Below are positions 12,311 through 48,703 of a stretch of DNA of 64,000 nucleotides, piece after piece. Position 1 is the stretch's first letter, and every line of letters begins with the position of its first letter. Origin of the DNA: Eledone cirrhosa (taxonomy: Eukaryota); NCBI GenBank assembly GCA_964016885.1, contig OZ024748.1, positions 7,254,001 through 7,318,000 of the forward strand, given 5' to 3'. The position numbers were made by a program, and so were the translations under genes. Below the pieces are notes generated by a model. The model did not search any database. It had not been told where the DNA came from and saw nothing but the letters and a program-made list of their open reading frames with translations.

Positions 12311-12614
12311 ATATTAATTCAAAATATTAACAAAAATAGACATTCGTGTGATCAACTATATTTTATTATACATATTTCAGAGGTACTGGGCTATCTTCAA
12401 CAGTACGTCCTCATCAGATAAAATAAGATGATGCATGACATGCCTTGACTAAGTAGATGGTTAAAATTCAGTCATGACTGAATGACACGAATGTCTATTT
12501 TTGTTAATATTTTGAATTAATATTAATAACTCCGGAAAACCAGTCTGTGGAGTGCTTCTAATCTATTGTAAAACTGTATTCATTGATTTATTCATTGAAC
12601 CTTGTTTAACCTTT
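12311..12614 (+). mobile_element. Family C (TA)n-embedded fold-back element
   Basis: 39-bp inverted arms 12311-12349 / 12485-12523. The hammerhead lies in the inverted part. The 3' tail is similar to 48600-48660. Confidence 0.8.
12361..12423 (-). ncRNA. Type-I hammerhead ribozyme motif
   Basis: UUUUAU-CUGAUGA-GGAC-GUACUG..CAGUAC-CUCU-GAA-AUAUGUAU-A|AUAAAA: 6-bp stem I, paired stem II, near-palindromic stem III, AUA cleavage triplet. Confidence 0.8.
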
Positions 12615-12769
12615 ATATATATATATATATATATATATATATATAGGAAAAGAATCAGCTAGATCTCAATATATATACACACAAAACACAGGAGGCAATG
12701 TTTCACATTTATATTAGGTTCACGCTTGGTGGAAGTGTCTATATATACATAGTGTATCTATATATGTGT

Positions 12770-14785
12770 ACATATATATACATATACATATATATATATA
12801 ATATATATATATATATAATATAATATATATACATATACATATATATATATAATATATATATATATATATATATAATATAATATATATACATATACATATA
12901 TAATATATATATATATATATATATAATATAATATATATACATATACATATATAATATATATATATATATATATATAATATAATATATATACATATACATA
13001 TATATATATAATATATATATATATATATATATAATATAATATATATACATATACATATATATATATAATATATATATATATATATATATAATATAATATA
13101 TATACATATACATATATATATATAATATATATATATATATATATATAATATAATATATATACATATACATATATATATATAATATATATATATATATATA
13201 TAATATAATATATATACATATACATATATATATATAATATATATATATATATATATATAATATAATATATATACATATACATATATATATATAATATATA
13301 TATATATATAATATAATATATATACATATACATATATATATATAATATATATATATATATATATAATATAATATATATATATAATACATATATATATACA
13401 ATATATATATATATATATATAATATAATATATATATATAATACATATATATATACAATATATATATATATATATATAATATAATATATATATATAATACA
13501 TATATATATACATATATATATATATATATATAATATAATATATATATATAATACATATATATATACATATATATATATATATATAATATAATATATAATA
13601 CATAATACATATATATATATATATATAATATAATATATAATACATAATACATATATATATACATATATATATATATATATAATATAATACATATATATAT
13701 ATAATACATATATATATATATAATACATATATATATATAATACATATATATATATAATACATATATATATATAATACATATATATATATACATATATATA
13801 TATAATACATATATATATATACATATATATATATACATATATATATATATACATATATATATATACATATATATATATACATATATATATATACATATAT
13901 ATATATACATATATATATATATACATATATATATATACATATATATATATACATATATATATATACATATATATATATATACATATATATATATATATAC
14001 ATATATATATATACATATATATATATACATATATATATATACATATATATATATACATATATATATATATATACATATATATATATACATATATATATAC
14101 ATATATATATATACATATATATATATATACATATATATATATACATATATATATATACATATATATATATATACATATATATATATACATATATATATAT
14201 ATATACATATATATATATACATATATATATATACATATATATATATATATACATATATACATATATATATATACATATATATATATATATACATATATAT
14301 ATATATATACATATATATATATATATATATATATATACATATATATATATATATACATATATATATATATATACATATATATATATATATATATATATAT
14401 ATATATATATATACATATATATATATATATATATACATATATATATATATACATATATATACATATATATATATACATATATATATATATACATATATAC
14501 ATATATATATATATATATACATATATATACATATATATATATATATACATATATATATATATATACATATATATATATATATACATATATATATATATAT
14601 ATACATATATATATATACATATATATATATATATATACATATATACATATATACATATATATATATATATATATATATATATATATACATATATACATAT
14701 ATACATATATATATATATATATATATATATATATATATACATATATACATATATATATATATATATATATATAATATAATATATA
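12770..14785. repeat. About 2-kb compound (TA)n microsatellite with CA/AAT interruptions
   Basis: Direct. Confidence 0.98.
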
Positions 14786-14944
14786 TATTTTTTTTTTTCC
14801 GTTTTTTTTTTTGTGTCTCCCTCTCTCTTTTTTCTGGGTTAGTTCGCTTTAATCATTTTCTAACCCAGAAAAGAGAGAGAGAGACACACAAAAAAGGAAA
14901 AAAATATTTTTCTTCCTCATAATCGTCTCTTTCTCCCTGTTTTC
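14786..14944. mobile_element. Fold-back element between (TA)n tracts (family E), no ribozyme core seen
   Basis: Imperfect inverted arms about 14786-14842 / 14860-14907 (…tctgggttag / ctaacccaga…) plus a short unpaired tail. Confidence 0.55.
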
Positions 14945-14996
14945 ATATATATATATATATATATATATATATATATATATATATATATATATATAT

Positions 14997-15190
14997 AACG
15001 AAGGAAATGTGGTAAGGAACCAGGTGGACCGTAACGCACCAAAGTACTCAATACTTAGGGTAGTAGAGTGGGTAATAGGAACGAGTAAGACCCCGACGGC
15101 TGAGCTCAAGCCGTTTCGACGGCTAATTCTGGGTCCAGAATTAGCCGTCGAAACGGCCTGAGCTCAGCCGTCGGGGTCTTACTCGTTCCT
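14997..15190 (-). mobile_element. Family A fold-back element
   Basis: Arms about 15075-15132 / 15135-15192; both arms share a private G>A change (gagtaagacc / ggtcttactc). Confidence 0.9.
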
Positions 15191-45237: not shown

Positions 45238-45654
45238 CATGTATTAGCCACAAGGGTCGACATGTAGGGGACAATACAAAGACAGGGACAGTATAATAAT
45301 AATAAAGATACCAAATATGAAAATATAATAATATCAATTATATAACGTAAAAATATATAATAAAATAATCTAGAGAGATACATAAAAATATTGAATACAT
45401 ATGTATGAGTAAAAGTACAGTGTATATATATATATATATATATATATATATATTATAATATATAATATAACATAATATATAATATATAATATATAATATA
45501 ACATAATATATAATATATAATATAAATTACATACATATGGAATACATATTTATATCTGTATATGAATTATATATATATATATATATATATATATATATAC
45601 GTGTATGTGTGAGTCAGTGAGTCAGTGTGTGTGTAAATATACATTCATGCCATT

Positions 45655-45744
45655 ATACATACATACATACATACATACATACATACATACATACATACAT
45701 ACATACATACATACATACATACATACATACATACATACATACAT
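45655..45744. repeat. (CATA)n microsatellite
   Basis: Direct. Confidence 0.98.
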
Positions 45745-47740
45745 TATTCTCCCTGCGAAGAAATCTTACAAGGAACAGTAGACCAGATAATAACAGGAAA
45801 TAAGTCCAAAAATCTTAAAGAAAGACATTAGAACAACAACAACAACAAAAACAACAACAATAACAACAACATGAATAAAAAAAAACAAATAAATAACAAA
45901 GCAACATAAACAATAATAACAGAAAAAAAAACATAAACAACAACAGTAAAAACAACATTAACAATAATAGCAACAATAATAACAAGAATAACAACAGCAA
46001 CAACAAGAGAGGAAAAAAAAAAACATCAACAACAACAACAACAATAACGGCAAGAGAAAAACAACAGCAATAACAACAATAAGAAAAGAAAATACAACAG
46101 CAATAACAACAAAAATAACAACAATAGCAACAACAACAACAGCAACAATAACAACAACAACAACAGCAACAACAACAACTACAGCAACAACAATAGCAAC
46201 AACAACAACAGCAACAATAACAATAAAATAACTACAGCAACAACAATAGCAACAACATCAAAATAACGAGAAGTATGATTATATAAAAATAAACAGTCAA
46301 ATATATAAAATAATGACAATTGCTTAGTTTTTATTATTTTGTTTTTACGTTGTTTGGTAATATTTTTTATTGTTTGTGTGATTAACAGACGACAGGGTAA
46401 GACGTAAACAGATCGTTTGTATTTTCTTCAGATGCACTTTATATATATATATATATATATATATATATATATATATGTGTGTGTATATATATATATGTGT
46501 GTGTGTATATATATATATATGTGTGTGTATATATTTGTGTGTATATATATATATGCGTATATATATGTGTGTGTATATATATGTGTGTGTATATATTTGT
46601 GTGTATATATATATATGCGTATATATATATGTGTATATAAATGTGTGTGTATATATTTGTGTGTATATATATATATGTGTATATATATATGTGTGTGTGT
46701 GTGTGTGTGTGTGTGTGTGTGTGTGTGTAAATATACATTTATTTATACATACATACATATATATATATATATCTATATATATATATACACACACACAAAT
46801 ATATATATATATATATATATATATATATATATATATATATATATATATATATATATATATACGTACATATATTTGTATGTATGCATATAAAATCTGAGGA
46901 TCATTGATTCGTTACTTTGGGTTTCGCGTAGCCGGTTAGACAAAATTACACACACACACATATAGATATATATAGATATATATATATAAATATATATATA
47001 AATATATATATATATATATAAATATATATATATATATATATATATATATATATATATATATACTTATTTATAATGTAGAGAGAATTAGATGGGATTTGAA
47101 GCTCTTATCAAGTAGATCAGCGGAAACTTTGGCTAAATGGAAATATGTCCAATTGGCAATTTATGTTAATACTGTTTTAGCATATCAATGTGATATCCTT
47201 GCATGACTCCCTGCCCTCACAACTATTCCACAGAAACGTGTGTAGAATGAAGCACGGACGGGGACCCAAACACCAAACTTACGATCCAATCCTTACAAAT
47301 TGGATCAGCTCCCGATGACATATGTGAACGAAATGCGAAATCTTTTAATGGAGAATAAAACATATATATATATATATATATATACAAATGTATGTATATA
47401 TATATGTGTGCATATATACATACACACATAACATATATATATATATATATATATATATATATATATATATATATATACAAATATATATATATGCGCATAT
47501 ATACATACACACACATATATATATATATATATATATATATATATATATATATATATATATATATATATATATATGCGCATATATACATACACACACACAT
47601 ATATATATATATATATATATATATATATATATATATATATATATATATATATATATATATGTATTTATATATATATACATAAACATACAGATGCATGTAT
47701 ATATATATATATATATATATGAATATAAATATATATATAT

Positions 47741-47897
47741 ATTAAAATAACATTAAAGTTTAAGCAAAGAATCGCTGCTTTCACTCTTAACGGGATCTTA
47801 ATAAATATGTGGTCTATGGTTTTATATATTTTTATATATATATATTATCCTTGTCGAGCCTTTTTCGGATTTTGGTCTTCACATTTATAATTATTAC
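47741..47897 (+). mobile_element. Family D element with inverted hammerhead piece
   Basis: Minus-strand AAGA-TCCC-gttaa-GAGT-GAAAGCA..TGCTT; the inversion junction at about 47799 falls inside the CTGAAGA box. Confidence 0.75.
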
Positions 47898-48372
47898 TAT
47901 ATATATATATATATATATATATATATATATATATATGTGTGTGTGTGTGTGTGTGTATGTGTGTGTGTGTGTGTGTGTGTGTGTGTGTATACAATTTATA
48001 TATAATTAATTGTTATATGGTTCTTCCCAACGGCTAAATACATCAAAATTAAACTGCCGAAAATCTACCAACACATCAATACACTAGATATAACATCTCT
48101 CCTGGACACAATAATATTTTTTTATTATTTCTATATTGAAAATAAACATGTATATTTACTTTTATATATACTTTCTTTTGTAACATATTTTCTGCATCCA
48201 GTACTCAATGTATATATAGAAAAAAAAATTTAAAAAAAAAAAAAAAAAAAAAAAGAAAATCTACATTAGGAGTGTGTATAATGACTGAGTAAGTGTATTT
48301 ATAAACTAAAAAATAAAATCACTGCAGTGTCTAATACATATATATATATATATATATATATATATATATATA

Positions 48373-48703
48373 CAATATATTAATAAATGGAAACTATATT
48401 TATAAAACTATAATTATTTTATTATATATATTTCAAAGGCAACCAAGACAGTCTTGGTGCGCTTTCATCAGATAAAATACAAAATTAATTTTATAAATAT
48501 TGACATAACTGGAAAACAACCTTGGCGTTTGAAAGTTCGCTGTTTCCCTTTAAATATATGTAATAAAATAATTATGGTTTTATAAATATAGTTTCCATTT
48601 ATCAATATATTGAATATTTACTCCAGTAATCTGTCGCGTGCTTTATATCAGTTATAAACTTTTAAGTTTGTTGGAATCCCAACAAATTAAATATAACTTC
48701 TGC
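48373..48703 (+). mobile_element. Family C fold-back element
   Basis: About 60-bp inverted arms 48373-48433 / 48552-48612; (TA)n on both sides. Confidence 0.85.
48415..48479 (-). ncRNA. Type-I hammerhead ribozyme motif
   Basis: UAUUUUAU-CUGAUGA-AAGCGC-ACCAAGAC-u-GUCUUGGU-UGCCUUU-GAA-AUAUAUAU-A|AUAAAAUA. Confidence 0.85.

Follow-up and report, generated by a model that had tools for sequence, protein, structure and literature searches.

Hammerhead folds in truncated 3'-end copies of Hydra-clade Penelope-like elements from Eledone cirrhosa

A window of 64,000 nt from the Eledone cirrhosa genome (assembly GCA_964016885.1, contig OZ024748.1, positions 7,254,001 to 7,318,000) was analyzed, in which three related hammerhead ribozyme motifs had been predicted from the sequence. 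All three were found at the predicted places, on the minus strand, which the original prediction had not given, and their extents were refined. Copy 1 (lineage F1) occupies 12359..12425 with its core at 12417-12411, copy 2 (lineage F2, which includes the intact open reading frame (ORF) P0001 described below) occupies 24678..24748, and copy 3 (lineage F3) occupies 48415..48479. From 5' to 3', each motif consists of the 5' strand of stem I, CUGAUGA, stem II, GAA, an octamer, A17 and the 3' strand of stem I. As predicted, stem I (8 bp; TATTTTAT/ATAAAATA), CUGAUGA, GAAA and the AUA site are common to the three copies, and the stem III octamer, which runs from A15.1 to U16.1, is different in each (AUAUGUAU in copy 1, AUGCGCAU in copy 2 and AUAUAUAU in copy 3). 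The predicted cut lies between 12367 and 12366, between 24686 and 24685, and between 48423 and 48422, respectively, and is spanned by AAUAAA in all three copies.

Stem II had been described as completely different in sequence, yet paired. The pairing was borne out; the difference is not complete, since three alignable basal pairs and a C·Y mismatch had been overlooked. In the predicted folds, stem II comprises 3 bp, a C·C mismatch and 6 bp in copy 1, 3 bp, a C·U mismatch and 12 bp in copy 2, and 3 bp, a C·C mismatch and a bulged helix in copy 3. This base of three pairs and a C·C or C·U mismatch, followed by a long helix, is common to the lineages. With stem II as drawn originally, 2 and 1 nt would remain for the loops of copies 2 and 3, whereas the predicted folds have loops of 4 and 3 nt. 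The perfect distal stem II of copy 3 owes part of its pairing to a C>T change that is not present in the listed sister copies. With regard to contacts between stems I and II, no canonical loop 2 was found. The C·Y mismatch in stem II and an internal loop after the 8 bp of stem I are predicted in the F1 and F3 groups, and stem I may extend past this loop, by about 12-13 bp in the F3 group.

The core CUGANGA...GAAA...UH with a free N7 and three helices in register with stem I open were observed. Thus, the three motifs were confirmed as type I hammerhead folds; their self-cleavage is a prediction from sequence. A covariance model built from 24 family members, the three window motifs included, matched these motifs and a decayed fourth copy (24888-24936, plus strand), and no further family match was found with it in the window. 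Rfam scans returned no hammerhead model among the best 150 of 532 matches, nor among the matches listed when copies 2 and 1 were scanned singly; those listed were microsatellite-driven miRNA and chance snoRNA matches only. The folding z-scores were modest (-0.8, -2.2 and -2.8 for copies 1, 2 and 3), so that folding energy alone is insufficient to carry the case.

The window motifs sit in 130-330 bp 3'-end fragments of three different lineages, set in (TA)n. Copies 1 and 3 belong to two-armed inverted insertions of about 300 bp, in which only the left arm has a complete hammerhead. The left arm of the 5'-truncated F1 insertion (12314..12474, minus strand) has its short end in (TA)n, about 50 nt beyond the cut site, and the right arm (12482..12613, plus strand) begins downstream of the cut site and reaches the long 3' end, followed by (TA)16. 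Similarly, the left arm of the 5'-truncated F3 insertion (48373..48542, minus strand) has its short end in (TA)n, and the right arm (48547..48703, plus strand) runs from the 3' side of stem II, without CUGAUGA, to the long 3' end, followed by (AT)n. Copy 2 lies in a 5'-truncated F2 fragment of 136 bp (24643..24778, minus strand) with its short end in (TA)n, for which no second arm was found; it stands alone and, in an alignment of 126 nt, shares 85% identity with the 3' end of a full-length element (L031). The fourth family member, of the F3 group, is decayed (24811..25170, plus strand), with a damaged core (24888-24936) and an interruption by other sequence at about 24937-25117. A further short F3-group 3'-end fragment (25207-25261, minus strand) faces 25118-25170 across a (TA)n run. 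A general repeat search of the window was dominated by (TA)n, and no ORF fragment of the element was found in the window by tblastn with P0001. The window copies themselves are likely without function.

Locus L031 contains P0001, an ORF of 800 aa flanked by an inverted and a sense F2-type hammerhead. A genome search with P0001 gave 56 scored matches, all near full length and with 98-100% identity, of which 52 were free of stops. Thus, the P0001 (F2) lineage has at least 52 stop-free ORFs and is young. The element consists of this single ORF, encoding a reverse transcriptase (RT) and then a C-terminal endonuclease, a 3' untranslated region (UTR) of 1.0-1.5 kb and a hammerhead near the 3' end; the unit, 3' UTR included, measures about 3.7-3.9 kb. 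Many full-length copies carry a second, upstream hammerhead in direct tandem, whose cut site precedes the ATG by 212 nt. The F1 and F3-group hammerheads follow broken ORFs (L133, L137, L290, L306 and L311) at a distance of 1.0-1.5 kb, and most of these ORFs share 45-64% identity with P0001. The hammerhead adjoins Hydra-type ORFs in all three lineages. A second AATAAA precedes the long 3' end of the F2 element by about 15 nt (L044:1288-1420).

P0001 carries RWT (RWK or RWE in homologues), SDKT, YRDD, a CNCRIKNKC linker, CNLC and CLH, no CCHH, and a C-terminal YFG region; its endonuclease is of GIY-YIG type as read by motif. No Pfam family was found in P0001 and four relatives. The published defining list for the Hydra clade of Penelope-like elements (PLEs) names RWK, DKT, a CxCX5C linker, CxxC and CxH and the lack of CCHH (PMC8557442). 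P0001 agrees with this list, being a single ORF with RT and C-terminal endonuclease, RW, DKT, CxCX5C, CxxC and CxH and without CCHH. Insertion into (TA)n was likewise found, as were the hammerhead near the 3' end, direct or inverted pseudo-long terminal repeats (pLTRs) and a tail at one end. By these motifs, which a comparison by eye also showed in the published protein of Hydra-1_Obim, the parent elements are assigned to the Hydra-clade Penelope-like retrotransposons, and a link of the three motifs to Penelope pLTRs was shown.

The abundance of the family was determined in the 3.0 Gb genome. The 13-mer TTTTATCTGATGA gave 59,000 matches compared with 115 for its reversed control, so the motif is not due to chance. 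A core-spanning pattern with T at N7 matched 58,034 times (control 3), and one with A, C or G at N7, which left the last stem base freer, matched 17,263 times (control 10); together, these indicate at least 75,000 intact-core motifs genome-wide. Each window copy is a member of its own abundant lineage, with 6,277 exact matches for F1 and 1,918 for the F3 subtype of copy 3, and anchors downstream of the hammerhead matched 48,575 (F3 group), 21,342 (F2) and 4,045 (F1) times. The loci examined from the pattern searches all came from the first part of contig C1. The N7-variant matches (G000:C1:20499650 and 24406064) include another lineage, whose stem II is longer and different atop the same base of 3 bp and C·Y, as well as a short-loop F1 lineage that recurs among the matches to the G8- and mismatch-C-variant patterns. 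Within one insertion (L136:500-800; G000:C1:63697200-63698400), the 5' half of an F1 hammerhead is duplicated in tandem three times, in units of 65 bp.

A type I hammerhead with a palindromic helix III, in very high copy number and mostly in non-coding copies, may also be explained by non-LTR retrozymes, short tandem repeats that paired hammerheads cut into circular RNAs; a 2026 preprint derives retrozymes from Penelope pLTRs (bioRxiv 10.64898/2026.07.22.740005). For these loci, such an origin was largely refuted and is highly improbable. A retrozyme is defined by hammerhead-bearing monomers of 150-450 bp repeated in tandem on one strand, and none were found in the loci examined; the neighbors closer than 500 bp among the first 100 matches listed were 13 divergent opposite-strand pairs and 2 same-strand pairs of unlike subfamilies (hand count), and the copies have ragged 5' ends that reach up into the ORF. 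None of the three window loci has a same-strand tandem partner, and thus a tandem dimer, as had been proposed for cleavage assays, is not their native arrangement.

For the analysis of covariation, 24 sequences, most of them recurrent, were picked by hand from among 185 haplotypes; 99.1% of their cells pair. Double-sided changes occurred in 6 of 18 pairs, five of them in stem II, one in stem III and none among the 8 pairs of stem I. Thus, the claim of structure-preserving covariation holds between lineages for stems II and III and does not extend to stem I. The covariation score of 0.383 was reached by none of 500 shuffles and by no slid control (at most 0.181), the observed number of changing pairs was matched by 18 of 500 shuffles and the number of pair types by 312 of 500; since the 24 sequences are related, this result is not a probability. 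In 16 lineage consensuses, the core and all pairs but one were kept. (The table had 17 rows; one, mis-anchored on an internal GAAAT, was dropped, and its few copies may remain in the totals of private changes.) By hand count, 13 further pair types in the consensuses keep pairing and 1 breaks it, whereas of 28 private changes in pairs, from 99 copies that had been chosen through their downstream anchors, 6 keep pairing and 22 break it (Fisher p = 1.2e-5). Private changes affected 11 of 1075 core sites, the same rate as elsewhere (p = 0.87). Once inserted, each copy decays neutrally, in its core as well.

Selection is best seen in the core. Genome-wide, N7 is changed in the 17,263 copies mentioned, with all three other bases seen, whereas the essential G8 is changed in 832. 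Since lineage changes keep pairs, private changes break them and N7 is free while G8 is fixed, selection acted on the transposing lineages and along the catalytic consensus. The motifs had been taken as selected ribozymes: selection for the hammerhead fold is supported, while the three window copies are samples of three separate high-copy lineages rather than independently selected motifs.

Two explanations without a ribozyme were compared with these data. Pairing could be a by-product, with RT template switching making hairpins and AT-rich DNA making palindromes in the absence of selection. These elements invert very often, AUAUAUAU is of low complexity, distal stem II differs wholesale among lineages and, in several of them, folding of the whole region gives z-scores close to zero, all of which would be expected of a by-product. 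It would leave unexplained the fixed core with free N7, the register of the stems around this core and the retention of the C·Y mismatch, whose C was lost in only 2,577 copies genome-wide. The contrast between N7 and G8 refutes a by-product for the core, and as an account of the whole motif it is very unlikely, while distal stem II may have arisen in this way. Alternatively, the conserved part could be a polyadenylation signal, given the AAUAAA across the cut site in the window copies. Since whole lineages have AAUGAA or AAUAGA with stem I kept by U·G pairs (6 of 16 consensuses), there is hardly any probability left for this explanation.

Helix III was computed to be unstable in the monomer (+4.7 kcal/mol, 2 bp) and to comprise 8 bp in the dimer. 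Computed self-dimers of the octamers had energies of -2.2 (copy 1), -10.5 (copy 2) and -3.2 kcal/mol (copy 3), and the F2 octamer paired poorly with that of F1 or F3 (-1.6 to +1.7 kcal/mol). A dimer design has been described for metazoan type I hammerheads (PMC4209133, PMC3088659), as has weak, dimer- or protein-dependent cleavage of Penelope hammerheads (PMC4209133, PMC11167929). Closing of the weak helix III is predicted to require a partner RNA or the protein of the element.

The 3' ends of the copies lie in (TA)n and form two clusters, at about 40-59 and 130-159 nt from the cut site on its downstream side, and 66 of 83 inverted arm pairs combine one short (~50 nt) with one long (~135 nt) end. 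The 17 remaining pairs include 12 of the F3 group, in which the long-end motif probably fails to match, and 5 that are long-long, a part of them being upstream pLTRs that continue into the ORF. For a Penelope element of Anolis, it has been reported that RT starts at two internal sites, which give rise to the tail, that the RNA copied is mainly uncut and that the hammerhead requires the protein for cutting (PMC11167929). The two end clusters and the one-short-one-long arms fit this scheme. By analogy, reverse transcription may begin at two points on uncut RNA, and we infer that cutting could be a side or late event that trims read-through or multi-unit transcripts.

Taken together, the motifs are best read as hammerhead folds in short, 5'-truncated, neutrally decaying 3'-end copies of three Hydra-clade PLE lineages. 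The fold was probably retained because selection acted on it in the parent elements, as a self-cleaving ribozyme that would be slow and conditional. Several observations weigh against this interpretation. None of 29 hammerhead-anchored copies (30 less one chance match) ends at the cut, and none of 29 full-length copies (30 less one without an ATG match) has its 5' end there; 9 of the latter start 5-195 nt downstream and 20 upstream of the cut. Truncation rates are alike on the two sides, with about 1.7 and 1.5 per kb (hand arithmetic), and thus the DNA record holds no sign of cutting. The hand-picked, related sequences inflate the covariation test. Furthermore, pair 10.1-11.1, given as G-C and highly conserved in PMC4209133, is mostly A-U or G·U here (A-U in 11, G·U in 4 and U·U in 1 of the 16 consensuses); G-C was seen in a minor lineage (L086, L088). 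The G10.1-C11.1 pair is not obligatory, and even U·U at this position has been reported in natural hammerheads (PMC3088659).

The absence of a cleavage footprint at copy ends would also be expected if the fold were kept in the same elements because it serves the RT-endonuclease protein as a signal for binding or folding, with catalysis vestigial. In the Anolis system, catalytic mutants left insertion in vitro unaffected, and the cut site was neither the start nor the end of any RNA read (PMC11167929). The pattern of constraint, however, is catalytic, with N7 free, G8 fixed and H17 = A in 16 of 16 consensuses, and a purely structural role is regarded as improbable. A bolder version of the ribozyme interpretation is that this distinct variant acts as a lineage-specific switch, with the octamer as a pairing code that permits cutting in homodimers only and the C·Y mismatch as an undescribed docking site for stem I or protein. 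This is a rather doubtful proposal; the intact ORFs of the young lineage would allow the switch, and what hammerheads do for Penelope elements, to be tested directly in the Hydra clade, which has been little studied.

Other elements were seen in the window. A compact hammerhead of another family starts its core at 34856 (minus strand) and has 4-bp stems I and II, a bulged base after A9 and GAAACGTT, resembling the minimal Penelope type. A third hammerhead-like family, GAAACAG...CTGTA, is present at 18325 (minus strand; a long hairpin with a damaged core), 59841 (plus strand) and 60916 (minus strand), and the flank of L031 has a similar motif. At 165 (plus strand), a CTGATGA core followed by a stem has GAGA or AAAG where GAAA is expected and is possibly a decayed hammerhead. 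A short repeat abutting (TA)n recurs at about 3910-4281, 14853-15163, 24500-24586 and 42081-42389, and the same translated string was seen in many loci. The assembly has a gap of 200 N at 2843-3042.

Hammerheads of Penelope elements, described in 2014 (PMC4209133), have a long helix II, a short palindromic helix III and many covarying consensus families, mostly as solo copies; the length of helix II, which had been thought atypical of pLTR hammerheads, is therefore not unusual, and neither is the palindromic helix III. Opposite-strand pairs 100-700 bp apart are common to these hammerheads and the present family. In contrast to them, stem I has 8 bp here rather than 4-5, or 2, no base is bulged after A9, pair 10.1-11.1 differs as described above and a C·Y mismatch is conserved at the fourth stem II position. 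Poseidon element PAc of Anolis (Frangieh et al. 2024, PMC11167929) likewise has two points beyond the hammerhead at which 3' ends fall and inserts into AT-rich targets, and its copies, as is probable here too, come from uncut RNA; it belongs to a different clade, and its ORF begins inside the hammerhead, unlike the cut well before the ATG here. Non-LTR retrozymes (PMC7229834; bioRxiv 10.64898/2026.07.22.740005) share a high-copy type I hammerhead in an animal genome, but are short tandem repeats (PMC7229834), whereas the present family is tied to an autonomous ORF and lacks short same-strand tandem monomers. Since up to 120,000 retrozymes were given for axolotl (PMC7229834), the copy number here is no record. 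In Octopus vulgaris, Penelope-like expansions with recent insertions were reported in a paper in which the words 'hammerhead' and 'Hydra' do not appear (PMC13282606).

The closest relatives are the Hydra-clade PLEs with C-terminal endonuclease, including Hydra-1_Obim, whose hammerheads were listed in 2021 (Craig et al., PMC8557442), one of them from Octopus bimaculoides and with another sequence. They share the single ORF with RW, DKT, CxCX5C, CxxC and CxH and without CCHH, (TA)n targets, a sense-strand hammerhead near the 3' end, inverted 5'-truncated copies and a tail at one end. Four short motifs of the present hammerhead gave no match in the supplement of that paper, whose long lines are truncated and wrapped. 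The literature searched, with few subscription papers, yielded no account of this family or of its C·Y mismatch; Repbase and Dfam lay outside this search, and the family may be annotated already. Since the motif class, covariation and presence in Hydra elements were already published, the gain is incremental. What hammerheads do for PLEs was stated to be open (PMC8557442), and the family offers a large natural data set on this, with core selection in parent lineages, neutral decay in copies and no cleavage trace at ends. Compared with the published Hydra elements, stem III starts with AU instead of AC, the tail is about 85-90 nt long instead of the 30-40 bp given for PLEs, and the unit exceeds the published length of <3 kb. 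Unlike those elements, the family has tens of thousands of copies as well as many intact ORFs, and its near-identical intact Hydra ORFs are usable for biochemistry.

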